DNA of 64,000 bases, taken from IMG/VR virus record IMGVR_UViG_3300037297_000328; one strand, given 5' to 3'. The translations under genes were made by a program, and so were the position numbers. Positions 36,622 through 64,000 of this stretch are shown piece by piece (within the stretch, counting starts at the first letter, position 1; each line of letters starts with the position of its first letter). A model generated the notes under the pieces. It searched no databases. It had not been told where the DNA came from and worked only from the letters and a program-made list of their open reading frames with translations. This stretch comes from an uncultured virus (IMG/VR IMGVR_UViG_3300037297_000328) (lineage: Duplodnaviria; Heunggongvirae; Uroviricota; Caudoviricetes).

Positions 36622-36622
36622 T

Positions 36623-39855: not shown

Positions 39856-39856
39856 G

Positions 39857-40150: not shown

Positions 40151-40154
40151 GGCT

Positions 40155-40604: not shown

Positions 40605-40614
40605 ATTTAAATTA

Positions 40615-40920: not shown

Positions 40921-40948
40921 CAGTCTATTAATATTTTATAAATTTCCC

Positions 40949-41308: not shown

Positions 41309-41318
41309 AATTTTCTTT

Positions 41319-41897: not shown

Positions 41898-42264
41898 TGT
41901 CTTGACTTAAATTTTTATTAACTCGTTCAATTGTAAAAAAACTTTCTTTAATTGCTAATATTAACCTATATGCTACTGCATCTGAAAATGTTTTATGGTA
42001 TTTTACATTATGTAGAAGTGAATTTCCTGTATAATATTTTTTTTTAATATAAGAATATTCTATACCAGAAATACCTTCACTCATTTGCACTAATTCTCCT
42101 GCCGTAAATGCCGATGTTGGATCTCCATTTTTAAAATCAATGCTGGATTTAGGCATAATTCCCCAATCTGAATGTGTGTAGTAAAATAATGATTCTTGTT
42201 TTACCCCTAGTTCTTTTAATTTTTCTGCATATTCAATACTGCAAACCTGATCGTCTAAATACAT
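41890..42264 (-). CDS. phage hypothetical protein
   Basis: QVCSIE.A.KLKELGV.QESLF, SAFTAGEL. Confidence 0.7.
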   Translation of the reverse strand: MYLDDQVCSIEYAEKLKELGVKQESLFYYTHSDWGIMPKSSIDFKNGDPTSAFTAGELVQMSEGISGIEYSYIKKKYYTGNSLLHNVKYHKTFSDAVAYRLILAIKESFFTIERVNKNLSQDNE

Positions 42265-42291
42265 TTCTAATTTTTAATTTAAAATTTATAA

Positions 42292-44509: not shown

Positions 44510-47095
44510 ATGAAAAAGAAAATACCTTTCCGAATAAGTAAAATATCTACTTCCCGTCAAAAATATTATACTGCGGCAATTGATGGTTTAAAAATGGGCT
44601 ACACTTTAAGGGGAAAAGATTTTGAAACATTGGACCAGTTATTAAAAAACATTGGAGCAACCCGCTATTATAAAAAAAGGAGAGCATGGCGATTTGAGTC
44701 AAGCCCACGTACAAGGCTTGCTAATATTGAAATTGATGTTGTAGAAGATTACAGAAGATTAGGCCGTCCACGAAAAATGAGCAATGGAGGAATAATAGAA
44801 ACCCATGATGGTAAAAAAGGCGGAACCATTGAAGGAAAAACACATGCGCAAGGTGGCGTTGATGCTGTAGTAATAACAGATAATAACCGACCCGTAGAAT
44901 TGGAAGAAGGCGAAGGTGTATTGTCTGCTAATACAATGAAAGGTGAAAAAAAATACCTTTTTGAAGGAGAAAAACTTACCGCAAAAGAAATTGCAAGCAA
45001 ATTAAACGTGGACCATGGCGGGCGTACATTGATGGAAAAAGGTGGGGTGGTGAAAGAGGAAGATGTACTTGTTGAAGCAAGACTTAAATTTACGGGCAAT
45101 GATGCCGATCATATCATCGATTATATTGATCCGGAAGATTTATTATCTGAAGATATTGAATTTAATGGAAATGGAGAATATTATTTATATTTTTATTATC
45201 CTTCACTAAATTATAAACCTTTTGATAAGAGAAGGATGGAAAGTGGAATATTTATGGATATTGAAAATATATTGAGACAAGATGATGTTGATGCCGATAT
45301 TGAATCGGTAGATATAGTTAATTCAGGTAAATTTGAAGAATATAATAAAGGTGGTGAAATAAAAAAAGAAGCAGATATTGATGAAGATACCCCTACTTCT
45401 CAAATGACCTACCAACAATATGTTGATATCTCAAAAAAAGAGTATGCATGGAAAAACAATGAAGCCATAAGGCAGGCTTATAAATTATCGTTATTACGAG
45501 AAATTTTTGATAAAGAGATTGCCGCAGATAATATGGGGACAAATATTAGCCGGTTTGGGGGCAATACAAATACATTTATCCTTAACAATATTTCAAAGGT
45601 AAAAATAGAAAACCAAACTAGCTATCAGGCTGCCGAAAAAAATATAAAAGAGCTAATAGAAAAAGCTATTTTTGAAAATAAACAACTTCCAGATGAATTG
45701 CTTAAAGATTATCCGAATCTAAAAAAACAATATGATTACATCCGGGAAATCCCCATAACCATTAATCAAAATGATTTAGATTATGAAGTAGCTAGGCGTG
45801 CGCATTATGCAACAAGTTTTAGCCCCGAAAAACGCGCCGTTCAACATCAAAAAGATTATGTTAGGAGCATGATTAATTTTTGGCTTACTTTTAGCCCATT
45901 GGCAAAAAACGAAAGACAAAAAGAAATATTGGCCGAGCGGATGACCGGATACAAGGATGTATATCTTAAATTTATGAAAGATTACTTGTATTCTCATGCC
46001 AATGTTATGTCGGCTATGATTACCGGTCCTGCAAATTTTCCAGTAAGGCAAAATGAGAAAGCAAACCGTGCGGCTGACAATAAAATGAATACTTTTATTG
46101 AGAAAACAAACAAATTTAAAAATAATACCCGCAAAATGCTCAACGAAGCAAAAACGAAGGAGCAAAAAGCAAGCGAGGTAAAACAGGTAATAAAAAACAG
46201 GCTTGATGATGGTATCCAAACAATAATTGAAATTGATACAGGCGTGAATAATTACTCCAGTCGTCCTCTTTTTGTTCAGAATTTACAAGGTTATATTGAG
46301 CGCATGGCAAAAAACGGGCGTGTTGAAGATGTTAAATATGCCTTAAATTATATAAAAGAGCGGCAAAAAGACATGAAAAAGCCTGTTTTTGCAGCTCGCA
46401 ATAGCATTTGGAATGCTGTAGAAATTGCAAAATCAAAAGTTCAAAGTCTGGAGGACAAAAAAGAAAACCCTGAGGAAGTTGAATACATTGGGGCAAAAAT
46501 AGTAAGAAACTATGACGATGACCGGATACAAATATTTTTTGATGAAATTCCGGCTCCCGAAATACGTGCAAAACTAAAAAGTAAAGCGTTTAAATGGTCT
46601 CCACGAAATAAAGCGTGGCAACGAAAAAATACCATTGCAGGATATAGAGAAGCCGTTTTAGTGGTAAATGAATTTTTTAAAAAGAAGGAGCAGGAAAAAA
46701 AGCCGTTTAAGAAAAAAGCGGCTTCGGAAAAATTAATTGGCGGTGTAGCCGACAATAAAACATTAAAAGAAATTGCAGAGGAACAGGGCAAAGACCTGCC
46801 ATTTACTTTCGCCCAATTAAAAAAAGGCATAAAAGTAGAAATGGAACATACCAACGATCCGGAAAAAGCAAAAGAAATTGCCTTTGACCATCTTTATGAA
46901 AATCTCAATTACTATATTGAGCTTGAAAAAATGGAGAAAAAGCTCGAAGACAAACCCAAGCAATCAGAAAAAGCTAAAATACAAGCCAAAATCGATGGTT
47001 TTAAGGTATTATTAGAACTTGCCGACACTGAGGCCGAAAAAGAAAAATTACAGGCTAAAATTGAGGGTTTTGAGGTATTATTGGATATAAACTAA
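44510..47095 (+). CDS. large polyvalent multidomain protein with C-terminal DUF5661-like domain
   Basis: G.THAQGGV..VELEEGE; SAMITGPANFP; DRIQIFFD..P...R.KLK..AFKWSP...AWQR; QLKKGIKVEMEHT...EIAFDHL.E...YY. Confidence 0.7.
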   Translation: MKKKIPFRISKISTSRQKYYTAAIDGLKMGYTLRGKDFETLDQLLKNIGATRYYKKRRAWRFESSPRTRLANIEIDVVEDYRRLGRPRKMSNGGIIETHDGKKGGTIEGKTHAQGGVDAVVITDNNRPVELEEGEGVLSANTMKGEKKYLFEGEKLTAKEIASKLNVDHGGRTLMEKGGVVKEEDVLVEARLKFTGNDADHIIDYIDPEDLLSEDIEFNGNGEYYLYFYYPSLNYKPFDKRRMESGIFMDIENILRQDDVDADIESVDIVNSGKFEEYNKGGEIKKEADIDEDTPTSQMTYQQYVDISKKEYAWKNNEAIRQAYKLSLLREIFDKEIAADNMGTNISRFGGNTNTFILNNISKVKIENQTSYQAAEKNIKELIEKAIFENKQLPDELLKDYPNLKKQYDYIREIPITINQNDLDYEVARRAHYATSFSPEKRAVQHQKDYVRSMINFWLTFSPLAKNERQKEILAERMTGYKDVYLKFMKDYLYSHANVMSAMITGPANFPVRQNEKANRAADNKMNTFIEKTNKFKNNTRKMLNEAKTKEQKASEVKQVIKNRLDDGIQTIIEIDTGVNNYSSRPLFVQNLQGYIERMAKNGRVEDVKYALNYIKERQKDMKKPVFAARNSIWNAVEIAKSKVQSLEDKKENPEEVEYIGAKIVRNYDDDRIQIFFDEIPAPEIRAKLKSKAFKWSPRNKAWQRKNTIAGYREAVLVVNEFFKKKEQEKKPFKKKAASEKLIGGVADNKTLKEIAEEQGKDLPFTFAQLKKGIKVEMEHTNDPEKAKEIAFDHLYENLNYYIELEKMEKKLEDKPKQSEKAKIQAKIDGFKVLLELADTEAEKEKLQAKIEGFEVLLDIN

Positions 47096-47113: not shown

Positions 47114-47869
47114 ATGACACAAGCAGAAATAAAAGAAAAAATAAAAAAACTCGAAAATGCCATTGAGCGCATTGGCGATGGGGAAGACAAGGATTCTATT
47201 GAATTGCAAAAAGCGGTTGACCGACTTAAAAAAAAGCTGGAGATGGAGGTAAAAAAGCCAGCAAAGAAAGTAAGCAGTGGCGCTAAGCAGGAAAAAAAGC
47301 CGGTTCAAAAGAAACCAGCAACCAGCACCAAGAAACCAGCTAAAAAACTCATCCTTAAAAAAGCCATCGAAACCCAAAAGCAACCCAAAGACATTACCAT
47401 TAAAAAGGGCGAAAAAAAGGAAACACACACGATTAATACGGCTTTTGCGGAGGATATACACGGAGCTATATTGGTACTCAATAAAGAGCGTTATGTAATT
47501 CGTGAGAAAAAAGACCGGAAAACCGGAAAAATGGAACAGGTAAAACATTCTCCTGAATATAAAAACGCTAAAACAATTGAAAAACGGGTGAATACTATAT
47601 TTAATTCATCAATTTACGATATTGCAAAAACCGCAAAGGAGAAAAAAGAAAAAAAAGATGTAATTGACGAGGCCGAGGCTATTCGCGACCTTACAACATT
47701 GTGGCTAAACGAGGTGGATATCTTAATTAATAATGAAGATGTGGCCGACCTTGCAAAAATTAAAAAATTGATGCTTGGATTGATAAAAGAAGCAAGAAAA
47801 AATGACCCCAAAGATAAATATAAACTTCAGGGTGGATTAAGTAAAATTGCTGAAAAATATGGATTGTAA
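47114..47869 (+). CDS. Lys-rich hypothetical protein
   Basis: 251 aa with KKPA repeats. Confidence 0.65.
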   Translation: MTQAEIKEKIKKLENAIERIGDGEDKDSIELQKAVDRLKKKLEMEVKKPAKKVSSGAKQEKKPVQKKPATSTKKPAKKLILKKAIETQKQPKDITIKKGEKKETHTINTAFAEDIHGAILVLNKERYVIREKKDRKTGKMEQVKHSPEYKNAKTIEKRVNTIFNSSIYDIAKTAKEKKEKKDVIDEAEAIRDLTTLWLNEVDILINNEDVADLAKIKKLMLGLIKEARKNDPKDKYKLQGGLSKIAEKYGL

Positions 47870-48293
47870 AAATAATAGCATAATGAAAGAAACTTATAGT
47901 TTTCGTATAAAAAACAATCATCCTGTAGTTCCGAAATACGCATTACTACTAGGAAGTAATATAAATTTGAATGGTGAACTTGATGATGATTTTATTGATA
48001 TTGATTTAGCAGAATCATCTCACATTGAATTGAAACGAGAATTACTTGGCTCAAAACAAAAAATTGTTGAATTAACAATTATTCCCAAAACTCGTATTAA
48101 TAATTGCAGAATAGCTATTTGTAACCGAAAAGCTTGTGGTATGACTTCTAGCCGAATAATACATTTGGGACGGATAACAGAATTACATGTTGAAAAGATT
48201 GAAATAGTTATATCGTCCAACTTATATTTTTTAGTTTTATTAGACCCTGATGAAGAGGTGGGTATAATTATGAAAACTGACAGTGAAATTTAA
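47859..48293 (+). CDS. divergent paralogue of 60638..61228
   Basis: IDLAESSHIELKRE versus VAISESSHIQVKKA. Confidence 0.5.
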   Translation: MDCKNNSIMKETYSFRIKNNHPVVPKYALLLGSNINLNGELDDDFIDIDLAESSHIELKRELLGSKQKIVELTIIPKTRINNCRIAICNRKACGMTSSRIIHLGRITELHVEKIEIVISSNLYFLVLLDPDEEVGIIMKTDSEI

Positions 48294-51108: not shown

Positions 51109-51573
51109 ATGAAATCATATCCAATAATCGATATGTATACTGAATTGGAACAATCAATAAATAAAGTGTTGCAAAAAGTTGGTACACGTTCATTAATCAG
51201 GTACCTGAATAATTTTGAACGTAATTTTAATTACCGTGCCGATACATTGTTTCAAATTATAGAGGGAATTGTTTGTCAGTATTTCGAAATATCAGCTAAA
51301 AAATTGTATGAAGACATTACAAGCATTAATGCTGCAAATGCCAGGCGTACCATGGTGTTTTTGCTTAAAGAAAAAACAATGTTTACTGATAAAGAAATCA
51401 GGGATCAACTGAGTATTAGTCGGCAATCATACAGCAGTTATGTGAATAACATAAAAAATGTATTGGACAATAAAGCTGCCGACTTGAAATTATACGAAGC
51501 GATTCAGGAAACGAATGAAATGTTTGAAATAAAAAATGATAATAAATGGAAAATAAGGAAGAAGCAAAAGTAG
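51109..51573 (+). CDS. DnaA C-terminal-like HTH protein
   Basis: IEGIVCQYFEIS...ANARRTMVFLLKE...KEIRDQL. Confidence 0.55.
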   Translation: MKSYPIIDMYTELEQSINKVLQKVGTRSLIRYLNNFERNFNYRADTLFQIIEGIVCQYFEISAKKLYEDITSINAANARRTMVFLLKEKTMFTDKEIRDQLSISRQSYSSYVNNIKNVLDNKAADLKLYEAIQETNEMFEIKNDNKWKIRKKQK

Positions 51574-52382
51574 TTGATATTAATCGCTATAAATCAACCG
51601 TAAAAAATTCACCATTGCTGGCGGGCGATTCTGTGTCGGTGAAAGCATACAGTGTATCTTTAAATCAAAACACCGGTGATCATGTTCAGCAACCACCACT
51701 TTCAAAAGAGTCGGAAGTGAAAAAGGAGGCACCAACATTTCAAAAACAAACAAGTAATCAGCCCCCACCACCTCCTCCGCCACAAAACGAGCCAGTTGAC
51801 GCCGGGTTTAATAATCAATATCAAAACGATAATATTGATCCGATGGACTTTTCCGGTGCCCCGGAACCAGAAATGGATGAAAAGGATCGGAAAGCTGCTG
51901 AAGCGGTAGCGGGTGGAGGTGCCGACATGTTAATTGGATTGTACAGTAGTTTCGTGCCTCCTATTTTGGCGGATATGGCAAAGGCTAATGTTAGTAAAAT
52001 TAAAGATATTTTTAATAATAATAGCCAGGTACCTTCTGATAAGGTAAAGCATATTGAGCGCTTTTTGGCAACTAATAATAAGCAGATAGAAGAAGCCCTT
52101 AAGTTAACACCTGAACAGGTTGCCATGCTAAAGGCCGCGTTATCTAAGGTATTAGAGCAGTATAACTTCCAACCGCAAAACCCGGTGGTTAATTTAATCA
52201 TGGTTGTGGCTACTATTGCAGTAATGCAGTATATGACAGTAAGCCGATTGATTAAGCAGCGCGAAGAGGAATTGTTATCCCTTATTAAACAATTCGAGGT
52301 CAGAGTGCCTGATGGTATGGAAAGCCCGTTTAAAAAGAAAAAATTGTTTATTAAAAAAGAAGATTTGGAAAAAGCAGCATAG
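51546..52382 (+). CDS. Pro-rich protein with C-terminal TM
   Basis: QPPPPPPPQ; NPVVNLIMVVATIAVMQY. Confidence 0.65.
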   Translation: MENKEEAKVVDINRYKSTVKNSPLLAGDSVSVKAYSVSLNQNTGDHVQQPPLSKESEVKKEAPTFQKQTSNQPPPPPPPQNEPVDAGFNNQYQNDNIDPMDFSGAPEPEMDEKDRKAAEAVAGGGADMLIGLYSSFVPPILADMAKANVSKIKDIFNNNSQVPSDKVKHIERFLATNNKQIEEALKLTPEQVAMLKAALSKVLEQYNFQPQNPVVNLIMVVATIAVMQYMTVSRLIKQREEELLSLIKQFEVRVPDGMESPFKKKKLFIKKEDLEKAA

Positions 52383-52416
52383 AGAATTATAAATTATAAA
52401 TTTAAAATTAAAAATT

Positions 52417-53145
52417 ATGAATTGGAATACGGATTTAACAATTGTATCGTTTTTCGTAGCGATTTTTTTAATTATTATTTTTTTAGTAATTAAATTTTTA
52501 AAGAAGCGGGAAAATGAGGTTTATCGAAACATTATTCAATTGCATTTAAAATTGAAAATAATTGCTGAAAGTTTAAAAACTAATAATATTAATATTTTTC
52601 TTGAAGATATTGCCAACTCTTTTACTAGGGAGGAGATGAATGATTTAAAATTGATTGGAGTGGATGAAAAATTAATTGAAAAAATATTTAAATTAAGTCC
52701 ATTTTATAAAGAAAATAATAATATTTTTCATCGTGAAGAAGTTACACAAGTTGTTTTAAATAAAAAAGACTTAAAAGTGATTAGAACCAAAAAAATTCCT
52801 AAGTGGAAACATCGGGTTGTGCATATTGCACGAAAGTTCCCATGGTTAATAAGATTGCTTAATTTTAAATACTCTTATTGCGAAAAATGCGGGTTAACAT
52901 GGAATTGGGTTGAGCCTTTTGTTGTGGAAACTGGTAAATATTTTGGCGTTTTTGCAGTATGCGAACATTGCTTTAAAAAGTCGACAATTGAACAGCTAAA
53001 AGAATATTATACTTCTATTTACTTAATGCAAAAAAAGGCTATGGCTCAAATTGGCTATAATGATCCTTACTTTTCATTAAAGCATTTATTAAACTGTGTG
53101 GAAGATTCTTATAATGAAATTAATAATCTAAGTTCTAATAACTAG
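52417..53145 (+). CDS. N-terminal TM protein with CxxC...CxxC
   Basis: CEKC, CEHC. Confidence 0.55.
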   Translation: MNWNTDLTIVSFFVAIFLIIIFLVIKFLKKRENEVYRNIIQLHLKLKIIAESLKTNNINIFLEDIANSFTREEMNDLKLIGVDEKLIEKIFKLSPFYKENNNIFHREEVTQVVLNKKDLKVIRTKKIPKWKHRVVHIARKFPWLIRLLNFKYSYCEKCGLTWNWVEPFVVETGKYFGVFAVCEHCFKKSTIEQLKEYYTSIYLMQKKAMAQIGYNDPYFSLKHLLNCVEDSYNEINNLSSNN

Positions 53146-53396
53146 TTTCTAATATCTAATACAAGACAAAAATACCAAGAAGAATAAGACAAGACTTGAT
53201 TTCCGAAACAGAATCAAATATTGATGTTGCGATTGCAGGCGTGGAATTACTTGGTGCCAATGAAAAATTAACCGAGGCTATAATGTTGTTATCTAAAGCC
53301 AGGGAAATTGTGTCAGATTATATTGATGGTCAAATAAATGAATGTGAACTAAGTTCTAATAACTAATTTCTAAGTTCTAATATATAAATAAAATAC

Positions 53397-54230
53397 ATGG
53401 AAAACAGGAACATAAACAACCAAACAAAGTACATAATTGCAGTGCATAATAAATTTGATAAATATGCTATTCAAACTTCAATCGAAGAGGCTAACAATTA
53501 TTTAGAGCGCTTCCCCGAAAGAAAGGCAATAATTGTGTCCGGCATATATCGCAATGATGATATTGCTAAAGAAAAATACACGCAATCAATGGCCGCAAGA
53601 AATAAAGGCAAACTAAAATTAATGACATTTGAAGGAACACCGCACGAAGATGTATTAAGTACAATTTTGCTTGGTTTTAAAAATGGGTTGATAATTATTC
53701 ATGAAATGCAATTTAATGAAACATTTCTGGAAAAATTAATTAATTATCACGAAAAAAACATTGATGTAATTATTCATCGCAATAAAATGCTGTTCAGTAT
53801 GGCCGAAGTAGCTTACTTCAATCAACAGTCGCGTATTATTCAGCAATTTGTTGATCGCGGAGAAAATTATATTATGCCCCGCCGTATTATTGTTCGCATG
53901 CACAACGACAATGATTTTGCGATTAACAAGGAGGGACTAATACGCTACATGCAGGAGTTTGGAGAAAAAATTGGATACAAATTATTCCTTTGTCAGTTTA
54001 TTTTGCTTAAAAAAAGGCATGGATTAAGACGGGAACTGGAAAGGGTTTGTGCAGTTGAGAATGAAAAATTTGAAGATTTTATCGATCCTTATTTTTTTGA
54101 GAAAGAAACAGCAAATTACGTATATTTCGAAATGGCATCAATGGATATTATTGCAAATGCTGATATTGACTTAATAAAAGAAAGCGAAAAAGATTTAATA
54201 AGAATATTACAAGAAAACGAGGAGGTATAA
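53397..54230 (+). CDS. degenerate paralogue of the adjacent ATPase
   Basis: FKNGLIIIHE...NIDVIIH...VRMH aligns with YKNGLLILEE...GVDVILH...LRLH; no Walker A. Confidence 0.55.
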   Translation: MENRNINNQTKYIIAVHNKFDKYAIQTSIEEANNYLERFPERKAIIVSGIYRNDDIAKEKYTQSMAARNKGKLKLMTFEGTPHEDVLSTILLGFKNGLIIIHEMQFNETFLEKLINYHEKNIDVIIHRNKMLFSMAEVAYFNQQSRIIQQFVDRGENYIMPRRIIVRMHNDNDFAINKEGLIRYMQEFGEKIGYKLFLCQFILLKKRHGLRRELERVCAVENEKFEDFIDPYFFEKETANYVYFEMASMDIIANADIDLIKESEKDLIRILQENEEV

Positions 54231-55162
54231 TGGCATCCAGGGACGCACTGGCACAAATAGTCGTAGGCAAGCAGGGTTCTGGTAAAACTTACTCTACTAA
54301 TGAAGAGATTGCTATTTATCGAGGTAAATTTAAGAGGCCGGTACTGATCATCGATAGGAAAGGTGAATATACTAATTACAAATCAGTATATTATGACCCT
54401 GATGTAAAAGACCGCGAGAAAAGAGCTAAAGGGAATCCTAATAGCGGGCATGGGATTAAATCCATTCACTTGCCACATATTTACCGCATTGTTTGTTTCG
54501 ATAAAAACCAGCGACCAATGGATGCAAACCAGATGGTTGAATTGATTTTAACTATTGCCGACTATTATAAAAACGGTCTGCTAATTCTCGAAGAAATGAA
54601 TAGCTACATACGTCGTACTATTCCTCCGGCTTTTTATGCATTTCTTACCACATTGCGGCACAATGGCGTAGATGTAATACTCCATTTTCAGGCCAACGGC
54701 GACGCACACCCTGATATCTGGAGTCAATGCACTACATTACGTCTACACAAAGCAAATGATAGTGTAACATCAATAGTTGGTAAGCGCGGTTTTGATGCCG
54801 ACCGCTTTGAATTGGCACGTATAGCTGAACTGGCTATTTATGAAAAATACCAGAAAGGGGTAAAATTAAAAAAAGCTGCAATGCTAAAGTACGGGCATGA
54901 AGAAAATTTCCCAAAAGAGGTAAAAGAAGAAATAAACAGGCATATTTATTACATGGTTTATTGCGATTTCGATCTAAGCCAGATAAGTAATATGCACCCA
55001 GTTGATTTTAGGAAAGCATGTACAATATTTTTATACCAGGAAAAAACGCAGATAAAAGATTTGATGCAGATTGAAGATGAACATGGGCGAAAGATTTACC
55101 CAAATAAAAATGCTGCGATTCAAAAATTAGTTAGCGATAAAGAACTGGTTTACATTAATTGA
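54230..55162 (+). CDS. FtsK/HerA-superfamily (A32/P9-like) genome packaging ATPase
   Basis: Walker A GKQGSGKT, Walker B LLILEE, LRHNGVDVILHFQ arginine-finger/sensor motif. Confidence 0.8.
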   Translation: MASRDALAQIVVGKQGSGKTYSTNEEIAIYRGKFKRPVLIIDRKGEYTNYKSVYYDPDVKDREKRAKGNPNSGHGIKSIHLPHIYRIVCFDKNQRPMDANQMVELILTIADYYKNGLLILEEMNSYIRRTIPPAFYAFLTTLRHNGVDVILHFQANGDAHPDIWSQCTTLRLHKANDSVTSIVGKRGFDADRFELARIAELAIYEKYQKGVKLKKAAMLKYGHEENFPKEVKEEINRHIYYMVYCDFDLSQISNMHPVDFRKACTIFLYQEKTQIKDLMQIEDEHGRKIYPNKNAAIQKLVSDKELVYIN

Positions 55163-55186
55163 GCAAAAAAACGTATCTTTGTAGAA

Positions 55187-55420
55187 ATGAAAAAGAAAAA
55201 ACCATCTTTAGGATTAACAAAAAAACAGCGAAGTGCCATTGTGAAAAAGGCACGTGCAAAAAAGGACTTAGGAAAGCCTGGCAAGGATTTTAAGAAAGTG
55301 GAGACAAAAGCGTATACCTATTACCGAAAGAAAGGAAAAAGTCCGGCAACGGCCAGAAAAATAGCTAAAAAAGTGGCTGCAAGTCAGTTTTGGAAAACGC
55401 AGGCAAAAAATAAAAGATAA
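55187..55420 (+). CDS. small highly basic protein
   Basis: 77 aa, K/R/A-rich. Confidence 0.7.
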   Translation: MKKKKPSLGLTKKQRSAIVKKARAKKDLGKPGKDFKKVETKAYTYYRKKGKSPATARKIAKKVAASQFWKTQAKNKR

Positions 55421-55807
55421 TGGCACAAGGAATACAAGTAAATAACAGTGGAGAAACAGATATTTTTTATATAGAAAGAAAAAAAAGAGAACTATATCAA
55501 TATCGTGAAAGACATAGTAATTCTGATATAAAAATGGTTGTTTCAACTGTTGAAAATAAGCACCTAGCAGATAAAGGGATAATAAATAGAATTAAAAAAA
55601 TACCCGTTAATGGTAAGGGACGGAATATAAGTAACCTAGGAAAGCTTATATTCCGAATGGCCCGAAAAATAATAATAGCTCTAAGAATTAGATTCTAATT
55701 TCAGGGTTTTAATTTCTAAAAAAATACCGGAATACAGGAAAGTTTTAATAAAGTATTGAGATATTTGTCTAATAGCTTATATCTCAATACTAAATACTTA
55801 TTTAAAT

Positions 55808-56659
55808 ATGGAAGAATTTAATAAGATTAAACAAAACACTGGAACATTCCTGTTGAATATGAAAAAATCTCCGTTGGATGACAGGGATTTTAAAGCTGAA
55901 ACTATCTATCCGGATCAGGTAGAGCTCCCAAAGAAACTTGACCTAAGACCTTATCTATACCCTGTGGTTAATCAGGGTGTTCAGGGTACGTGTAGTGCAC
56001 AAGTAGCAGCCTGTATGAAAGAATACCAGGAATATAAGTTACAGAAATTAACGGGCATTGAAGGTGATATGTCGCCTCAGTTTGTATACAATTTGCGCGA
56101 AGAGCCAGATTACGAAGGCATGACGCCGCGCGAAACAATGAAAATTTTGCAACAATATGGTATTTGCCGTGAAGCCATATATCCTTATAATACTATTGAA
56201 TACCCAATGTATATTTCGCAGGATGCCTATGCCGATGCACTTACTTTTCGTATTCAAAATTATGCACAAATCAATACAATTGATGCACTGAAAAAAGCAT
56301 TAGTAAAGGATGGTGTATGTTATATTTGTTTTCCAGTGTATAACTCAGGTATGCAAATGTGGAAGGCCGCACAGGGAGATATAGATATGGGTGGCCATGC
56401 GATGGCTGTAGTAGGCTATGATGACGACAAAGAACATTTTATCATTCGCAACTCATGGGGCGAAGATTGGGGTGATAATGGCTATACCTATTATCCGTAT
56501 GAAGATTTTGGGGCGCATTGGGAAATATGGGGTAGTGTGGACAAAGAGAGCGCATGGCCGGAATTTGATGTGAGTGAATATAAACAGCCTATTAAGGCAA
56601 GTCATTTACTTTGGATAGGTGCGGCAATATTGTTAATATATGTTTATGCAACTAAGTAA
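55808..56659 (+). CDS. papain-like C1 cysteine peptidase with C-terminal TM
   Basis: QG.QGTC, GGHAM.VVGYDD, IRNSWG.DWGDNGY; LLWIGAAILLIYVY. Confidence 0.93.
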   Translation: MEEFNKIKQNTGTFLLNMKKSPLDDRDFKAETIYPDQVELPKKLDLRPYLYPVVNQGVQGTCSAQVAACMKEYQEYKLQKLTGIEGDMSPQFVYNLREEPDYEGMTPRETMKILQQYGICREAIYPYNTIEYPMYISQDAYADALTFRIQNYAQINTIDALKKALVKDGVCYICFPVYNSGMQMWKAAQGDIDMGGHAMAVVGYDDDKEHFIIRNSWGEDWGDNGYTYYPYEDFGAHWEIWGSVDKESAWPEFDVSEYKQPIKASHLLWIGAAILLIYVYATK

Positions 56660-57140
56660 AGAGCAAAACAAATCGTGTTGGCAGTTATTTATTTTATAAT
56701 TGCCCTGGTTTATTCTTTATTTTTGGCATACGTGGCTGATAAAATAAAGCATTACGAGTCAACTGAATTCGTTATTATCACATTTGCCATCCTTGTTTCA
56801 GCTTTTTTTATTATATTTGCATTAGTCGCGATTGGAAAATGTTTTTTTAGAATAGATGATTAAAGAAATTATAAATTATAGATTATAAATTAAAAATCAT
56901 GAAAAAAGTAAAGAAAACTACAAAATACTTAGTATCAAGAACTGTTTTTTCAGACTATGAATTAAAACTAATTTCCGATAAAGGAATTAAACTTAAAAAA
57001 AGAAACAATAGATATTATGTTACGGTGAAACCTAAATTTACGGGCAATTTTAATTCTGTAGACGTTTTAGTTGTAGGTTATCCTACAATGACGAAAACTC
57101 TAAATACTGGATACTTAAAGTCTTACTAATTTCTAAATAC

Positions 57141-57406
57141 ATGCCACTATTCGTTTCGAAAACTGCGGTACCATTGATAATACCGCACTAGGTTTTTACT
57201 GGTGCCGTAAAAGCATTCGTTTTAAAAGCAAACAACTGGATGGAAAGGCATTGTGTTCTGAATGTGTTCCACCTGAATTTTACGATGGAAGCAAGAACGA
57301 TGGAGGAAAATGGCATAACAAGTTTCCCAAAGAAAAATTTGATATAAAAAAGCACGATACAAACGATTATATTAATATTAATCAAAAAGGCGAGATAATA
57401 CATTGA
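57141..57406 (+). pseudogene. frameshifted Cys-rich phage gene
   Basis: MPLFV then shifted frame ENCGTIDNTALGFYW...ALCSEC.P...GKWH.KF. Confidence 0.55.
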
Positions 57407-57589
57407 AAAATACCAGGACATATCAGAACTTAATCAGTCGTCTTGGAATTGTTTATTGGAGCAATTCTACATGGGAAATAGTTGATATCAATGTAAAAGA
57501 AGAATAATTTATATTAGGAGTATTATATAAGCACATTGAGATAAGGTCAATGTTTCATATTTTACAGTCAAATAATTAAATAGGAATAC

Positions 57590-57814
57590 ATGGTATTAAA
57601 AACTAAATACAACATTGGCGATAAGATATGGTTTGTATCGCACAATATGGTAAATTCAGGACGTATTGATGCGGTAAGTGCTTCAGTAATTAAGAGGATA
57701 TCAGGGGTTTCATCTCGTGTATTTTATCGTATAGAAGGCACGCTTGTTGAAATAGATGAAAAATATGCATTTGAATCGAAAGAGGATTTGAAAAACGCCT
57801 TATTTTCTGAATAA
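57590..57814 (+). CDS. small phage hypothetical protein
   Basis: TKYNIGDKIWF...FESKEDL. Confidence 0.7.
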   Translation: MVLKTKYNIGDKIWFVSHNMVNSGRIDAVSASVIKRISGVSSRVFYRIEGTLVEIDEKYAFESKEDLKNALFSE

Positions 57815-58509
57815 TGAAAAAAGTCCTGATAGCAACTCCAACCAGTACAAACAAAGACTATATTTTCCTTGACTGGTTTATCCATACCAGCAATTTTACT
57901 TATCCGAATAAAGAAATAATTATCTGCGATAATTCCCATGATATTACTTATCATGAGAAATTAAAAGCAATGGGTGTAAATTGCCTGTATGTGGCACCAA
58001 AAAGCCGGCGATCTCATGATTACATTACCGAGAGCCAAAACGTGCTCAGGGATTATTTTTTAAAAGGCAATTACGATTATTTTTTTTCATTAGAGGTCGA
58101 TATTTTTCCTCCGCGCAATATAATTGAGAAACTATTAACTGCAAATAAAAAGATAGTGGCGGCTCCTTATTTTTGGAATTTCGGAAAACAAAGCCAGGTG
58201 TTGTTGGTTTATTTCAGGCAAACCGGCGAAAAAGAATTTATTACCCATGAACCCGATTTTGCTGAAACCCTGCAGTTCTTCGATGGTAATGTAAATCAAA
58301 TTTACGAAAATGGTATTGGTTGCACATTAATTTCCCGGGAAATAATCGAAAAAATACCCTTTCGTGTTGAGTCCGGGAAACCTGGTTATTCTGATACTTA
58401 TTTTTATATCGATTTATTTAAGCTAGGATATAAAAACTGGATGGATACCAGCGTATTTTGTAAGCATTACAATAGCGATTGGGGCGGAATTATTGATAAT
58501 TATGTATAA
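57814..58509 (+). CDS. GT2-like glycosyltransferase
   Basis: KVLIATPT, DNS, YFFSLEVD, GIGCTLI.R, SD..F, DTSV.CKH. Confidence 0.85.
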   Translation: MKKVLIATPTSTNKDYIFLDWFIHTSNFTYPNKEIIICDNSHDITYHEKLKAMGVNCLYVAPKSRRSHDYITESQNVLRDYFLKGNYDYFFSLEVDIFPPRNIIEKLLTANKKIVAAPYFWNFGKQSQVLLVYFRQTGEKEFITHEPDFAETLQFFDGNVNQIYENGIGCTLISREIIEKIPFRVESGKPGYSDTYFYIDLFKLGYKNWMDTSVFCKHYNSDWGGIIDNYV

Positions 58510-58850
58510 CGTATGGTGGTATGGATTAAAATTTTAACGGATTAGAAATATGGAATTTATAGAATACTTTAAAGAACGAGAAAAAGACCTAATAAAAGCA
58601 GTTGGTGAAAAAGAATGGGAAGATAACAAGGTATATTATGTAGAAGAAATAATTGAAATAGTAAACGAATGGCAATTAAAATTTTTACCTATATCACGTG
58701 TTAGCAATTTGTTGTGTGGCTTTTTCGGGCCTAAAAATGACAGTAGTTCAGCAACAATATGTAAGCATTGTGGAAGAGAAAAATGGATGCACCCAAAAGT
58801 CACATAATTGTTGCTAACGCTGAGCTAAACAGCGTTTTAATGCTGTTTAA
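58504..58850. mobile_element. single cassette E with long attC-like site followed by a minimal site
   Basis: gtatAAC gtatg GTGGTATGG.TTAAAATTTTAA...TTAAAATTTTTACCTATATCAC gt GTTagcaa; end ttgctAAC; then TAAACAGC gttttaat GCTGTTTA. Confidence 0.7.
58550..58807 (+). CDS. cassette hypothetical protein
   Basis: First about 50 codons lie within the attC-like site; CKHCG. Confidence 0.65.
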   Translation: MEFIEYFKEREKDLIKAVGEKEWEDNKVYYVEEIIEIVNEWQLKFLPISRVSNLLCGFFGPKNDSSSATICKHCGREKWMHPKVT

Positions 58851-59077
58851 GGTATGAAAAGGATATATTAAATTTCAAGCAAGCAATCAAAGAAGTTAAA
58901 AGTGAGTGGGGTAAATTTTTGAATTTAAGCTAACGACTTTATTTATCTTATTTTCAACTACTTGCGATTTATTTCAAATAATCTTGAAAAAAAAACGATT
59001 AAATGTATTTTATATTAAAATAATGTTTATATTTGTAGAGTCAAAAGCAATAAAGCAAAAACTTAAAAATTTTAAAA

Positions 59078-59308
59078 ATGGGAAAAATATTAACTTATGA
59101 TAAAGCTCGAAAAAGTGGCACAAAAATTATTGGTAAAAACACTAAAAAGTACCACGCTAAATTTATTGAAAGTACTAAAAATGGACAGGTTAGTATTTGG
59201 AAAATTAAAGGTGGTTATGCTGTTACAAGATTTTCAGATAGTTTTTCAACTATTTACAAAACAATTAGAGGTTGTAAAATGACTAAATTGTGGCAATTGC
59301 ATAAATAA
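59078..59308 (+). CDS. hypothetical protein
   Basis: 76 aa downstream of TATATTTG promoter. Confidence 0.55.
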   Translation: MGKILTYDKARKSGTKIIGKNTKKYHAKFIESTKNGQVSIWKIKGGYAVTRFSDSFSTIYKTIRGCKMTKLWQLHK

Positions 59309-59309
59309 A

Positions 59310-59480
59310 ATGAAAAATACTCACGGAGGTAAAAGAAAAAACGTAGGAAGAAAACCTGTAATTGATAAAAAGTTACAGGTTTCTTTTTACATAGAACAAT
59401 CCAAGATTGAGAGATTTGGAGGATTGAAAGAATTTAAGGCTAAAATTATTGCTCACATCAATAAAGTTGCTGCGAAGTAA
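59310..59480 (+). CDS. small DNA-binding-like protein (56 aa, not in track)
   Basis: MKNTHGGKRKNVGRKP motif. Confidence 0.6.
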   Translation: MKNTHGGKRKNVGRKPVIDKKLQVSFYIEQSKIERFGGLKEFKAKIIAHINKVAAK

Positions 59481-59775
59481 TATAGTGAATAACACTGAGC
59501 TAAACAGCGTTTTAATGCTGTTATATTTTGGTTTTTAAAATTTCAGCGATGGCAAAAGAACAGCAAAAAATAAAAGCGTTTGTAACTGAATGGACAGATA
59601 AAACAGTTACATACAACTGCTTTGAAATAGGACAAACAAGATTCTCAGATTTGAAACCATTGTTTGATGGGATGAAATTATTTAAAGGGAAAAATATTTG
59701 GTTTGAAACCGAAATAATACCAGGAATAATGACAATAAAAAACAACGAAAGCAAGAAAAACCGTTTTATTCAGCT

Positions 59776-60324
59776 TTGGAATTACTACGTGCATGGGAAA
59801 TTTTAAAAACTTTAATTGTTATAATTAATCAAAAAACAATGAGAACACCAAAAAAGATAGATTTTAATTTATTAAAGCAGGAAGCCGAAACCCAAATAGG
59901 TGAGCTGGAGAAGCTAATAGAAGAAACCCAGAACGAAATAAAAGAACTTTCGGCAAAAGAAGAGCTTACCGCCGATGAACGAAAGTTTCTTAATTTTATT
60001 AAAAATGAAGTTATTGAGCACGGGAAAAGCCTTCGTGCAAAAAAGATGCTATATGATGAATACCTTATTTGTTCTCAGGAACAAGAAATTCTTGATCAGA
60101 GGGAAAGAATTGAATGCCGTAAAAATTTTAAGTTTGTTTATCGGCAGGCTTTAAAATTGAAAAAAGATTTTGATATTCTTCCTGCTCTTCGTGCGCATTT
60201 ATCCAAAGTCTTAAAAGAATACAAAGATAGTTTTTCTCCTGAGGAAAAAACTTTATATTATATGAGTTTGAAAAGAGAGGTGAAAATATGTACCGAATAT
60301 AAAAAGAATACAGTGAAACGATAA
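59776..60324 (+). CDS. coiled-coil hypothetical protein
   Basis: Likely start MRTPKK. Confidence 0.6.
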   Translation: MELLRAWEILKTLIVIINQKTMRTPKKIDFNLLKQEAETQIGELEKLIEETQNEIKELSAKEELTADERKFLNFIKNEVIEHGKSLRAKKMLYDEYLICSQEQEILDQRERIECRKNFKFVYRQALKLKKDFDILPALRAHLSKVLKEYKDSFSPEEKTLYYMSLKREVKICTEYKKNTVKR

Positions 60325-60491
60325 AATCATTGACATTATAAAATAACTTAGTTACAATATCTCATTGTAATAGCTGTAATCCCTGACATTTTTTGTCAGG
60401 GATTATTGTTTTTATACTTGTATAATTATATAGAACTTAGTAGTTGATTTTTTAAAGCACAAGAGGGAGCCAGTAAATTAAATTCAAAACA

Positions 60492-60599
60492 ATGGAAGAT
60501 TTGAATTGGAAATATGTCGGTATTACTGCTTTAGTTGCACTGGGCGTTGTTATTATGTATGACCGTGTATTGAAGGATTATATTCCAGGCGGTAAGTAG
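60492..60599 (+). CDS. 35-aa single-TM protein (not in track)
   Basis: MEDLNWKYVGITALVALGVVIMYDRVLKDYIPGGK. Confidence 0.7.
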   Translation: MEDLNWKYVGITALVALGVVIMYDRVLKDYIPGGK

Positions 60600-60637
60600 A
60601 CAGTAAACTTATGGTTTAACTTTTTACACTTAAAAAA

Positions 60638-61228
60638 ATGGATTATAAACAAAGAATTGCCATGTATCATAATAAGGCAAACGGTGCGTACAATAACGCA
60701 AACGGTGGATTAGTCAGGGGGGCGCAAGCTCTTAATCCTGTCGATAGGACGTTGAGTGTTACACTTACTCCTATTTCAACTACTATTTCTGGTGCTGCTC
60801 GTATTTTTGGTGCTTTTGTCTCTCCTGATGAGACTTATAATACTGCCAATAACATGACAGTCGCTATATCTGAAAGTTCTCACATCCAGGTGAAAAAAGC
60901 TTCTGAAGCCAACCCGTTTAGGGTTAAAGGTGTTTTATACACCGTATCGAATGCTCTTCAGTTAGCTCAGCCTATTGTGATCACAAAGGCCAGCATAGCT
61001 GGTAGTTCTGAGATTGCCACTTGGCAGCCTCAAAATTACACTGCACCAACCAATTACAACGCTTTACAGATTAAAACATCTGCATTGCAGGCTGTGATTG
61101 ATGGTTACACCAGATTCGATATAAATTTTCTTGCGGGGTATAATGCGTCAATGATATTGACCATAAACGATAAGGTGGATCAGAGTTCACTATTATCTAA
61201 TAAGGTGCCTATCAAATCGGCAGAATAA
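60638..61228 (+). CDS. candidate major capsid protein (single jelly-roll sized)
   Basis: 196 aa, beta-strand pattern, own terminator, heads the membrane-protein cluster; fold not verified. Confidence 0.45.
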   Translation: MDYKQRIAMYHNKANGAYNNANGGLVRGAQALNPVDRTLSVTLTPISTTISGAARIFGAFVSPDETYNTANNMTVAISESSHIQVKKASEANPFRVKGVLYTVSNALQLAQPIVITKASIAGSSEIATWQPQNYTAPTNYNALQIKTSALQAVIDGYTRFDINFLAGYNASMILTINDKVDQSSLLSNKVPIKSAE

Positions 61229-61252
61229 ATCCTGTATTCCAATAATCATTTT

Positions 61253-61290
61253 AAGACGGGTTGGGAAAGTCCCAGGCCCGTCTTTTTTTT
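61253..61290 (+). terminator. intrinsic terminator
   Basis: aagacgggttggga-aag-tcccaggcccgtctttttttt. Confidence 0.85.
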
Positions 61291-61303
61291 AAATGCTCCT
61301 TTT

Positions 61304-61693
61304 ATGGATGATGAAAAAATACTTTGGACTGAATATATAGCAAGAAATAATCCTGATGCATTAAACTACTTGTTGGAGCAATATGGCTATTTACGTGCAT
61401 ACAGTCTGGAAGAAAGGTTGACCGCAATAGATACCTTGCAGCAAGAATATGGACACGAAGCAACAATCAATCTATTGCGCATCCATCCCGATTATGAGAT
61501 GATAGTTGAAGACAATGAACAACTTAACCCGCCAAAAGAAATAATAAAAGAGGTTGAAGTTCAGCAACCTCAAGTACAGGTAAGTGATCCTGTAAAAGTA
61601 AGTGTTGATAATGGATTTCATAATACATTAAAGGATGTATTACTGATTATTGGTGCTATTTGGCTCGTAAAAATAATAATATCAAAAGATTAG
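61304..61693 (+). CDS. putative virion membrane protein (C-terminal TM)
   Basis: HPDYE; VLLIIGAIWLVKIII. Confidence 0.7.
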   Translation: MDDEKILWTEYIARNNPDALNYLLEQYGYLRAYSLEERLTAIDTLQQEYGHEATINLLRIHPDYEMIVEDNEQLNPPKEIIKEVEVQQPQVQVSDPVKVSVDNGFHNTLKDVLLIIGAIWLVKIIISKD

Positions 61694-62166
61694 TGAAAGT
61701 AAATAATAAAATAATACAGCGAGCAGTTGCTCAGTCAATAGTAAGGGATACGCCCGACTTAATAAAGTTGGTGAAAAAATATAAGCCTGTTGATGATAAT
61801 ATAAGTTTGCTCGATTTATTATTTGATGTTCAATATTTGCTCGAAAATGATAGAAAATTTGCAGCAGAATACACAAATTTTCTTTTACAGAAAAAAAGAC
61901 TTATCAATTATAATAGTGCAACAGGTTTGCTTGCCGGGGTTACTAATTTAATAGGCTCTGTTGTAAATTCAAGCACCCAAAAAAAAGAGCAACAATTAGA
62001 GTATTCGAAGCTTAGTTCTCAGAATACTCAGCAATTAATGCAATTTATGATGCAGGAGGAGCAAGCGCAGCTTGAAAAGGAGAAACAAAAAACAAATATT
62101 ATATATATAGCAATAGGTTCATTCGTATTGCTGACAGGAATTGTAATTTTTGCTAAAAAAATGTAA
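61693..62166 (+). CDS. putative virion membrane protein (C-terminal TM)
   Basis: IIYIAIGSFVLLTGIVIFAKK; GTG start likely. Confidence 0.7.
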   Translation: MKVNNKIIQRAVAQSIVRDTPDLIKLVKKYKPVDDNISLLDLLFDVQYLLENDRKFAAEYTNFLLQKKRLINYNSATGLLAGVTNLIGSVVNSSTQKKEQQLEYSKLSSQNTQQLMQFMMQEEQAQLEKEKQKTNIIYIAIGSFVLLTGIVIFAKKM

Positions 62167-62168
62167 AA

Positions 62169-62426
62169 ATGTGTTGTAATAATGCAAATGGAGACATATT
62201 AAGCGGTATTGGCGATTTATTTATCTCTGATGAACAAAAAAAATTAAATGAATCGTACTTGCAGGATGCTGAATTGGAAAGGCAAAAGACAGAAGCCATG
62301 ATAGAATATCTTAGTAAGCGAAAGGCTTTGGCCGGTTCGCCAAGTGCCGGGATGGATCAGCAGACATTAATTGTTCTTGGAGGTGTTGGCGTATTAGCCG
62401 TATTTGTTATAATAATGATGACATAA
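62169..62426 (+). CDS. putative virion membrane protein (C-terminal TM)
   Basis: LIVLGGVGVLAVFVIIMM. Confidence 0.7.
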   Translation: MCCNNANGDILSGIGDLFISDEQKKLNESYLQDAELERQKTEAMIEYLSKRKALAGSPSAGMDQQTLIVLGGVGVLAVFVIIMMT

Positions 62427-62437
62427 ATAAGAATACT

Positions 62438-63019
62438 ATGAAAGGTGATGTTTTTTCAGCAACAAGCTATTATATGCCAGGCAATCAATGGAATTTTGCA
62501 GAAGGAGATATTTTCTCGGCAATAGGAGATATAATGGAGCCGTGCGAACTTGATCTGCCTTATCCTGACTCACGTTTGCAAATGCTGCGGGATACTGTTG
62601 AATTAAGGCGTGAAACGTGGGCGCAGGCGAAAGCTGCAAGGGATATTGCGTACAAGGATTGGGCCGATTGTAAGCGAAAACTATTTTGCAATGCAGGACC
62701 AAAAAATTCAACATTGAATGCCCGCGAAGGCGAAGAAGAAGCTGCGCGCGTTGCGCTTGAGTCTGCCGAGAAAAACCTTTCGCAGGCTGTGGCTGCTAAT
62801 GAGGATGCCGAGGATGATTATCGTTTTTGTGTCGATCAGTACGCGAGGATCATGAGCCAGCAATCAAAAATTGAGAGTGAAGAGCAAAAACTGGATATTG
62901 AAGAACAAAAAGTCTCAACAGTAAAACTTGAAACCAGTAAGGATTATGCCAAATATGGCCTTATCGGACTGGGTGTTGCGGGATTATTTGTATTTGGTTA
63001 TTTAATTTTTAAAAAATAA
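62438..63019 (+). CDS. coiled-coil protein with C-terminal TM
   Basis: YGLIGLGVAGLFVFGYLIFKK. Confidence 0.7.
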   Translation: MKGDVFSATSYYMPGNQWNFAEGDIFSAIGDIMEPCELDLPYPDSRLQMLRDTVELRRETWAQAKAARDIAYKDWADCKRKLFCNAGPKNSTLNAREGEEEAARVALESAEKNLSQAVAANEDAEDDYRFCVDQYARIMSQQSKIESEEQKLDIEEQKVSTVKLETSKDYAKYGLIGLGVAGLFVFGYLIFKK

Positions 63020-63030
63020 AAGCTAAAAAA

Positions 63031-63195
63031 ATGGCAAAGAAAAAATCATTAAAAGTGTATAGAGATTACACTAAGACGCATAAAAACCAAAAGGCTGCCA
63101 AAAGTCATGCCGCAAGAATACGAAAGCGTGGAGGAATGGTATCTGTAGAAAAAACTTCTGCGGGATACAGGGTAAGGTCATCATATAAAAAATAG
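63031..63195 (+). CDS. small basic protein (54 aa, not in track)
   Basis: MAKKKSLKVYRDYTKTHKNQKAAKSHAARIRKRGG... Confidence 0.6.
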   Translation: MAKKKSLKVYRDYTKTHKNQKAAKSHAARIRKRGGMVSVEKTSAGYRVRSSYKK

Positions 63196-63200
63196 AAGTC

Positions 63201-63440
63201 ATGGGAATGATGTATGTTGAGGATCCTAATAAATACTTTAATATTCCTTATATAGAGTATTTACAAAGTACTGTAGGCGATACCGGTGAGCAATTGCTTG
63301 AAGAAAAAGAGACAGAAATTGCACAGCGCAATGTCGAGGTGGGCGCTTCGAATATAGGCAAAACGCCGTTTATTATACTTGGTCTGGCAGTAATAGGATT
63401 GGTTACGATTGTGATTTTAAAAAAGAAAAAAATAATTTGA
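63201..63440 (+). CDS. putative virion membrane protein (C-terminal TM)
   Basis: FIILGLAVIGLVTIVILKKKK. Confidence 0.7.
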   Translation: MGMMYVEDPNKYFNIPYIEYLQSTVGDTGEQLLEEKETEIAQRNVEVGASNIGKTPFIILGLAVIGLVTIVILKKKKII

Positions 63441-63441
63441 G

Positions 63442-64000
63442 ATGAAATCAAGTAGAAAAATAGGAATATTCATTTTTGGGTTAGGCATAGCTGGCATAGC
63501 GGTTGCAACTTATTTTTTATTAAAAAAAGAAAAAAAAGCTAAAGTTGCGATACCTGTTCAGGATAGTGATATGCTATCCGGGGAAAAAGAGAATATTTCC
63601 GAAAGCTCTATTGATAACACCCAAACTTCAACAGATACTAAGCCTGTAGAAGTTAGACATATGACTATGTATGATATTCCTCGTCCAACTTGGTATACGC
63701 AGGAAATGGAGAAGAAATTCAGAAATAGTTATCAGGGTTACATGAGTGGCGGCGATGCCATGAAGCAAAAATACAAAGACTGGATTGCTAAGTGGCCTGG
63801 CGAAGCCTTTAGAGTAGATACTTTTGACGATTATTGTATTGAAAGTGCATTGCAGGATATTCATGCTGCATTTAGTCTTAATTTTCTGCAACTATCTGAA
63901 TTAAGAAGGTTCTATGGCGTAGGCCGCGACCGCTTGTTGCCTAAAGACCCCGAACAACCTAAGCCTGAGTGGCTGAATAAAAATGATATGGAATACCATA
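63442..64000 (+). CDS. N-terminal TM protein, runs off window end
   Basis: MKSSRKIGIFIFGLGIAGIAVATYFLLKK..., open to 64000. Confidence 0.7.
   Translation, partial: MKSSRKIGIFIFGLGIAGIAVATYFLLKKEKKAKVAIPVQDSDMLSGEKENISESSIDNTQTSTDTKPVEVRHMTMYDIPRPTWYTQEMEKKFRNSYQGYMSGGDAMKQKYKDWIAKWPGEAFRVDTFDDYCIESALQDIHAAFSLNFLQLSELRRFYGVGRDRLLPKDPEQPKPEWLNKNDMEYH

Follow-up and report, generated by a model that had tools for sequence, protein, structure and literature searches.

A candidate capsid protein and a packaging ATPase

The window analysed here is a 64,000-nucleotide stretch of an uncultured virus (IMG/VR record IMGVR_UViG_3300037297_000328), filed under Caudoviricetes. It encodes a candidate jelly-roll capsid protein, a packaging ATPase and a series of membrane-anchored proteins. 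The DNA is AT-rich (29-38% GC per 2 kb, about 33% overall) and gene-dense, and no tRNAs were found in it. A preliminary description, made from the letters alone, had read the window as part of a large tailless, membrane-containing double-stranded DNA (dsDNA) phage of Bacteroidota with a genome of over 64 kb, a size borne out by the 72,800 bp recorded for the contig of three of its proteins, of which 8.8 kb falls outside the window. We scanned 116 of the 179 open reading frames (ORFs) of at least 60 aa against Pfam and PHROGs, omitting overlapping shadow ORFs, and 30 of these 116 against NCBIfam. Statements of absence rest on the level of hidden Markov models (HMMs), with two window ORFs folded. 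Three relatives served for comparison: G001 (IMG/VR, 79.8 kb, incomplete by CheckV), G003 (70,501 bp, 100% by CheckV) and L003, a 46.9-kb JGI contig of which 19 kb was seen.

The 196-aa product of 60638..61228 (plus strand), our candidate major capsid protein, was modelled as a single jelly roll, as the preliminary description had foreseen. This candidate capsid-type protein is predicted to self-associate on its own, and the capsomers would probably be homohexamers. A single-sequence ESM Atlas model was poor and uninformative (pLDDT 0.32). Foldseek with the capsid model returned weak, mixed jelly-roll matches only, and the capsid proteins of sphaerolipoviruses and P23-77 were absent among the matches listed, a result compatible with kinship. 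No Pfam or PHROG model exists for this family (1 of 149 members matched a PHROG, via an unrelated endolysin part), and neither the capsid protein nor the ATPase found a match in 50,697 GenBank phages.

A second, short and divergent jelly-roll paralogue of 148 aa (47847..48293, plus strand) matched the family HMM at E 3.5e-11 (38.8 bits, a score reached by 0 of 1000 shuffles). Lacking the N-terminal helix, 12.8 kb from the main capsid gene and on a long branch, it is a candidate for a minor capsid protein or a second major capsid protein. More than one copy of the family is found in each of the three long genomes, with two in all in G001 and three in all in G003, where they stand in tandem beside the ATPase gene. 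In a FastTree phylogeny (155 sequences, 181 columns, weak deep support), the three G003 copies cluster together and no single clade unites the second copies from the three long genomes, which suggests repeated duplications of the capsid gene. In L003, the C-terminal part of a 567-aa protein (13702-15405) also falls within the family (E 9e-13); preceded by a beta-propeller-looking repeat region and followed by a membrane anchor, it may be a turret or spike derived from a capsid gene.

The 310-aa product of 54230..55162 (plus strand) was identified by motifs and structure search as an FtsK/HerA-superfamily genome-packaging ATPase of the A32/B204 type. All the motifs named in the preliminary description are present, namely GKQGSGKT (residues 13-20, Walker A), LLILEE (117-122), RHNG (143-146) and Q154, with the trivial correction that the spacing between RHNG and Q is seven residues, not six. 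Residues G13, G16, G18, K19, R143, H144, G146 and Q154 are invariant in all eight aligned homologues. The proposed structural check matched the protein to STIV2 B204 and to ATPases from corticoviruses, from A32-type viruses and from sphaerolipovirus PH1, the last being the best viral match; there was no terminase among the 50 matches listed. A PHROG named ‘terminase large subunit’ (phrog_2666) does match the ATPase (E 1.6e-13), which the structure search shows to be B204/A32-like. There was in addition a weak Pfam Zot match (E 3e-4). Clusters of look-alike ATPases carry a Uroviricota label, no match was found in plasmids, and GTDB scans with the capsid and ATPase alignments yielded nothing beyond a Walker A piece of 36 residues from an archaeal bin. 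Conserved copies of this ATPase occur in the window, in G001 and in G003.

Anchored proteins, wall enzymes and vertex candidates

Proteins with a membrane anchor are concentrated at the two ends of the window. In a census of hydrophobic 19-mers (Kyte-Doolittle at least 1.6; leaving out three ORFs, at 7791, 13239 and 17957, that overlap others or are doubtful), such segments occur in 6 of the 7 ORFs of 60601-64000, 5 of the 12 of 1-7600, 4 of the 15 of 51501-60600 and 5 of the 81 of 7601-51500, which gives 11 of 19 for the two end blocks against 5 of 81 for the middle (Fisher p 1.5e-6). The earlier count of ‘at least ten’ small single-transmembrane proteins at the two ends is reached if the lysozyme and the ORFs at 5972 and 6351 are included, but not otherwise. 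This enrichment is an indirect pointer only to an internal lipid membrane, which this virus would possess; no support was obtained from N-terminal amphipathicity. Six consecutive single-anchor proteins, recognised by hydrophobicity (61304, 61660, 62169, 62438, 63201 and 63442), occupy 61304..64000 on the plus strand and are candidate virion-membrane proteins. In L003, orthologues of five of the six follow the capsid gene, itself 50% identical to that of the window, in unchanged order (E 3e-16 to 9e-32 and 4e-12), and orthologues of 61304 and 61660 are also found in G003. One of the six, the anchored coiled-coil protein 62438..63019, does weakly match the ‘terminase small’ family phrog_509 (E 0.006).

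The anchored lysozyme and protease of the preliminary description proved real. The first is a GH108 lysozyme (764..1534, plus strand; PF05838, E 1.7e-14) with a C-terminal membrane anchor and an anchored orthologue within the G003 virion block (E 1e-31), a candidate for a role in entry or lysis. The second is a papain-family (C1) protease (55808..56659, plus strand; PF00112, Peptidase_C1, E 4.1e-18), a candidate maturation protease whose C-terminal hydrophobic anchor is weak (score 1.66). An N-terminally anchored peptidoglycan-binding protein (124..573, plus strand; PF01471, E 2e-6) is matched by homologues in the G001 virion block (E 1e-10 and 2e-7) and in that of L003. An 84-aa beta-rich protein (1540..1794, plus strand) may be the penton, or vertex protein: a word-based search with it found no homologue, but an orthologue precedes the fibre genes of G003 in the corresponding place (E 1.4e-5), and G001 has a positional look-alike. 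Spike or fibre and receptor-binding candidates follow at 1801..5964 (plus strand) and include LamG-like and tail-fibre-like segments and an LRR protein (PF13385, E 3e-5; PF13306, E 9e-6), with the caveat that ‘tail’ and ‘minor tail’ PHROGs match segments of 3642..4406. At the end of the virion block (6351-7509), an anchored 256-aa protein precedes a regulatory phosphoprotein of the SiaC family (PF09345, E 3e-22).

No head-tail hallmarks found in scanned ORFs of the window and its long relatives

Portal, HK97 capsid and tape measure had no Pfam or PHROG match in the 116 scanned window ORFs, so that, save for the phrog_2666 and phrog_509 labels, the earlier statement that these genes and a terminase are missing is upheld for the ORFs scanned. 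G003 carries a 228-bp direct repeat at its ends (99.6%), and is for this reason taken to be a complete circle. The window's capsid protein, ATPase, anchored lysozyme and 84-aa penton candidate all recur in it, as do two of the anchored proteins, and 110 of its 111 ORFs gave no match to terminase, portal or HK97, only fibre or spike and polyvalent segments. The Caudoviricetes hallmarks (terminase large subunit, portal and HK97-fold capsid) were thus not found at the HMM level in either genome. G001 has two capsid paralogues and the ATPase in the same gene order, and encodes in addition a primase, DnaB, UvrD and polyvalent proteins; a scan of 112 of its 113 ORFs gave no head-tail hallmark. In L003, the orthologues of the anchored genes are followed by 7.5 kb encoding more anchored proteins. 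A further candidate, L001, was rejected as not a member of the capsid family. The genome census is far from complete: of the subfamily alignments run on IMG/VR, one gave G003 and another nothing.

Taken together, the jelly roll, the B204-like ATPase and the complete circular 70.5-kb relative without head-tail hallmarks support the earlier reading. We consider it likely that the window represents a nearly complete dsDNA genome of about 72.8 kb from an icosahedral phage that lacks a tail, encloses a lipid membrane and infects a wetland Bacteroidota bacterium. This genome is probably circular like those of its relatives, since both long relatives place window-start genes after window-end genes, and its closing distance of 13.1 kb is similar to theirs (11.7 and 9.8 kb). 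As no polymerase, primase or helicase match was found among the scanned window ORFs, replication would rely on host enzymes.

Setting and host

DNA of the window is present in three wetland metagenomes from three studies, one of them probably the source. In the probable source run, 44001-64000 is covered by overlapping exact contigs at a flat depth near 14, which indicates a single replicon. A second wetland DNA run gave short exact pieces of the same region. Exact contigs from an RNA library lie at 60629-60793, 60826-61198 and 61218-61446, spanning the capsid candidate; expression cannot be ranked from contigs, and the RNA library may contain DNA. Stretches of 44-64 kb left uncovered in these two runs are not evidence of absence.

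The host is very likely a member of the Bacteroidota. That it is bacterial follows from the peptidoglycan enzymes, which exclude archaea and eukaryotes. Two accessory genes tested matched mainly Bacteroidales phages, and the G003 virion block encodes a CarboxypepD_reg domain, which is associated with Bacteroidota. Shine-Dalgarno (SD) motifs were found at 5 of 97 starts (control 6%), and starts in the window, G001 and G003 are SD-less and A-rich at -13 to -10 and -3, similar to those described for Flavobacterium johnsoniae (PMC6847099). The promoter motif looked for was not enriched, and GTDB scans found no host link by prophage, metagenome-assembled genome or spacer.

Comparison with known systems

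The window resembles the Halopanivirales (Sphaerolipoviridae, Simuloviridae and Matsushitaviridae; Helvetiavirae, Singelaviria) in having more than one single-jelly-roll capsid-type protein, an FtsK-type ATPase, many membrane proteins, spike genes and no tail. It differs from them in its 72.8-kb genome of about 33% GC, its mesophilic wetland setting and its probable Bacteroidota host, as well as in combining one conserved capsid protein with variable paralogues, and no close structural match to their capsid proteins was among those listed. Singelaviria is ranked as a realm (PMC12451622, PMC10848233, bioRxiv 2025.02.15.638363), and Helvetiavirae are defined by two single-jelly-roll major capsid proteins (MCPs) (PMC10848233). 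These MCPs, for example VP4/VP7 and VP16/VP17, form homo- and heterodimers; a single-jelly-roll capsid candidate and an FtsK-HerA superfamily ATPase are both found here. Genomes of sphaerolipoviruses measure 28-31 kb (PMC12643093), and those of simuloviruses are given as 16-19 kb. The definition of Sphaerolipoviridae further includes linear DNA with inverted terminal repeats, 67-68% GC and a haloarchaeal host (PMC12643093). The size and GC content of the present genome, its peptidoglycan enzymes and the direct terminal repeat of a relative place it outside that family.

An Inoviridae-type phage, with a membrane-anchored Zot/pI assembly ATPase and a small ssDNA genome, does not describe the window either, and Charybdis elements, listed at 4.6 kb, were rejected as a match. 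The virus SSIP-1, whose host Salisaeta belongs to the wider Bacteroidota/Rhodothermota group, is like the window in having anchored proteins and a lytic enzyme in its late block, but differs in size and composition (43,788 bp, 57% GC). It is described as a circular dsDNA, membrane-containing, tailless virus of 100 nm with T=49 and probable single jelly rolls (PMC6260650; see also PMC6356626), and at 43.8 kb is the largest bacterial or archaeal tailless membrane-containing entry in a published table. Kinship was rejected, as gp45, gp46, gp47 and the ATPase gp40 are without sequence or profile similarity (40 of 57 coding sequences compared; capsid-profile HMM E above 1; hhalign probabilities 0.1%, 0.2% and 7%).

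The preliminary description had likened the virus to PRD1, PM2, STIV and sphaerolipoviruses. This stands for the jelly roll and the ATPase class, but not for the capsid architecture, since STIV/STIV2, PRD1 and PM2 have a double jelly roll and the 196-aa candidate a single barrel. No HMM match to any capsid protein of the double-jelly-roll kind was found in the 116 window or 110 G003 ORFs, and the genomes of prokaryotic double-jelly-roll viruses are quoted as 7-18 kb (PMC5894146) or below 20 kb (PMC8812541). Portogloboviridae (SPV1), with one single-jelly-roll MCP and an internal membrane, have been proposed to reflect the ancestral, pre-duplication state (PMC8812541). The window encodes a candidate for such a capsid protein, but also the genome-packaging ATPase that they lack. 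Borgs carry multicopy single-jelly-roll capsid-like proteins predicted to form homohexamers, together with glycoconjugate clusters (bioRxiv 2024.11.05.622173). They are in both respects like the window, and unlike it in being archaeal, linear, up to 1.1 Mb and mostly without a packaging ATPase. A literature search showed no description of this group among the papers listed, with subscription journals (mostly) and supplements, which could list such contigs, outside its coverage.

Alternative explanations

In a Halopanivirales-style capsid, 60638..61228 and 47847..48293 would be co-major proteins forming heterodimeric pseudo-hexamers, and the virus an oversized helvetiavirus. The presence of two or three jelly-roll paralogues per genome in the window, G001 and G003, the FtsK-type ATPase with PH1 as its best viral match and the two MCPs that define Helvetiavirae (PMC10848233) speak for this view. 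We nevertheless judge it rather unlikely, given a distant, long-branched paralogue of 148 aa without the N-terminal helix, second copies that do not form one clade (those of G003 group together, at weak deep support), and a main capsid protein predicted to self-associate alone. An ordinary tailed phage, with its terminase, portal and HK97 genes in the remaining 8.8 kb or too divergent to be recognised and the jelly roll a decoration protein, is highly improbable: none of these genes was found in 110 ORFs of G003, the complete relative, the 7.5 kb of L003 beyond the position of 63442 encode more anchored proteins and so account for the gap, and the 310-aa ATPase has a B204 fold, with no terminase among its 50 listed matches.

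The many small membrane proteins and the weak Zot match would also suit an extrachromosomal element of virus-like character, or a virus that is pleomorphic, extruded or packaged in vesicles. The ATPase would then be a Zot-like motor for assembly or DNA transfer, and the jelly roll a surface or minor protein and not an icosahedral shell. Borgs, with hexamer-forming single jelly rolls, glycosylation clusters and, in the account cited, no proven virions (bioRxiv 2024.11.05.622173), offer a parallel; we hold this to be improbable. A tailless virus of some other lineage that does without SD sequences would accord with the lack of a direct host link and of promoter enrichment, and accessory genes move between phages. 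Set against this are the A-rich, SD-less start context common to the window, G001 and G003, the best matches of both tested genes to Bacteroidales phages, the CarboxypepD_reg domain and the peptidoglycan enzymes, which leave a host outside the Bacteroidota unlikely.

Proposed mechanism and implications

For a tailless membrane-containing phage, analogy with PRD1-, STIV- and sphaerolipovirus-type viruses would suggest the following life cycle. Once inserted into the inner membrane of the host, tail-anchored proteins would nucleate a lattice whose ring-shaped capsomers consist mainly of 60638..61228, with the short paralogue as a minor capsid protein and 1540..1794 and the fibre genes supplying the vertex spikes. 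At a special vertex, the ATPase would pump the genome, replicated by host enzymes, into a procapsid lined with membrane, whose maturation would fall to the anchored C1 protease. On infection, the spikes would attach to glycans of the cell surface, the wall would be opened by the anchored lysozyme together with the peptidoglycan-binding proteins, and the membrane would deliver the DNA. Scaled from SSIP-1 at equal packing density, as a matter of arithmetic only, the particle would measure about 118 nm with T near 69.

We are fairly confident that the window represents a large-genome, single-jelly-roll, FtsK-ATPase tailless phage lineage. It is conceivable, though short of probable, that it belongs to an unnamed, diverse group of order or class level with a membrane-lined capsid of T near 70, built from homohexamers of one single-jelly-roll protein and served by an FtsK-type motor. 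Such a group would, in the published scenario, sit between portogloboviruses, with one protein and no ATPase, and Halopanivirales, with two proteins and an ATPase, or else reflect an independent jelly-roll recruitment. It would take tailless prokaryotic viruses to 70-80 kb or more with tailed-phage-like cargo, including polyvalent anti-restriction proteins, primase/helicase and glycosylation clusters, and would number on the order of a hundred or more capsid clusters at 50% identity, missed or mislabelled as Caudoviricetes. Genomes of this kind have probably been missed or misfiled because the capsid has no Pfam or PHROG model and the ATPase look-alikes are labelled Uroviricota; the capsid and ATPase alignments from this analysis are usable markers. 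A 70-80-kb group would roughly double the size range of tailless membrane-containing prokaryotic viruses, would place single-jelly-roll viruses not just at hot and hypersaline sites but also in ordinary wetlands and in a major phylum of bacteria, and would offer a test case for the origin of vertical jelly-roll capsids (one protein first, duplication later).

Other genes, repeats and a cassette-like region

Turning to the neighbours of the ATPase gene, the ORF that overlaps its start codon (53397..54230, plus strand) is possibly, and tentatively, a degenerate ATPase paralogue without Walker A. Its alignment by hhalign has a probability of 64% over 44 columns, from Walker B to the RH region (9.0 bits, reached by 0 of 1000 shuffles); the HMM match, at E 0.057, falls short of the inclusion threshold. 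It could act as a packaging cofactor. Further upstream on the plus strand lie a DnaA_C-like helix-turn-helix protein (51109..51573; Pfam Bac_DnaA_C, E 2.5e-4; G003 counterpart, E 0.0044) and a 278-aa protein with one hydrophobic segment (51546..52382), to which ORFs of 298 and 311 aa directly before the ATPase in G001 and G003 correspond by position only.

The late operon opens with an 861-aa protein (44510..47095, plus strand; DUF5661, E 3e-10). Upstream of the virion block, G001 and G003 encode large polyvalent or anti-restriction proteins of ART-PolyVal, LPD and SNF2/DarB-like type; those directly upstream, in G003 (L012 15836-L013 6300) and G001 (L008), include a DarB-like helicase/methylase, ddrB-ParB, a zeta-toxin-like kinase, LPD11, LPD23 and ART-PolyVal. 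In tailed phages polyvalent proteins are co-injected; for a virion without a tail, one must ask how their delivery would come about. A glycan-modification set (GT8, GT11, GT-D, two Sulfotransfer_2, FkbM and other methyltransferases; Pfam and PHROGs) lies among small ORFs at 29006..42921 on the minus strand. Such a set is unusual for a tailless prokaryotic virus and might serve to decorate the virion or to change the surface of the host. Glycosyl-, sulfo- and methyltransferases occur at 57814-58509 as well as 29006-42921, and in some form in all four genomes examined.

A 538-aa protein (19073..20689, plus strand) had no informative match in Pfam, PHROGs, NCBIfam or PDB sequences, and to call it a replication initiator would be an unsupported guess. 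In the surrounding region (18100-33620), which we take to resemble an integron-type cassette array, many small ORFs end at a shared CTAACG-type core (for example 18941, 21407, 23147, 26100 and 28086; on the minus strand 31862, 32177 and 33595), accompanied by a 66-nt direct repeat (18100/18933) and a 24-nt perfect inverted pair (23132/33593). No integrase was found in the window; tyrosine recombinases were seen in L003 (1059..1859, by eye) and G003 (PF00589). Within ORF 13719..14438, 36-nt inverted arms at 13938-14167, 158 nt apart and with a perfectly paired outer part (TGACCGGTCAAAA), are possibly an origin or binding site near the divergence point at about 16.3 kb. An AT-rich intergenic element of about 30-80 nt, possibly a promoter or operator, occurs three times in both orientations (23911-23992, 28768-28849 and 38127-38181). 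Finally, 49560-50603 encodes a 347-aa low-complexity Glu/Lys/Val repeat protein and 48793-48860 holds a QKTTTK triplet repeat, where the Logan assembly breaks.

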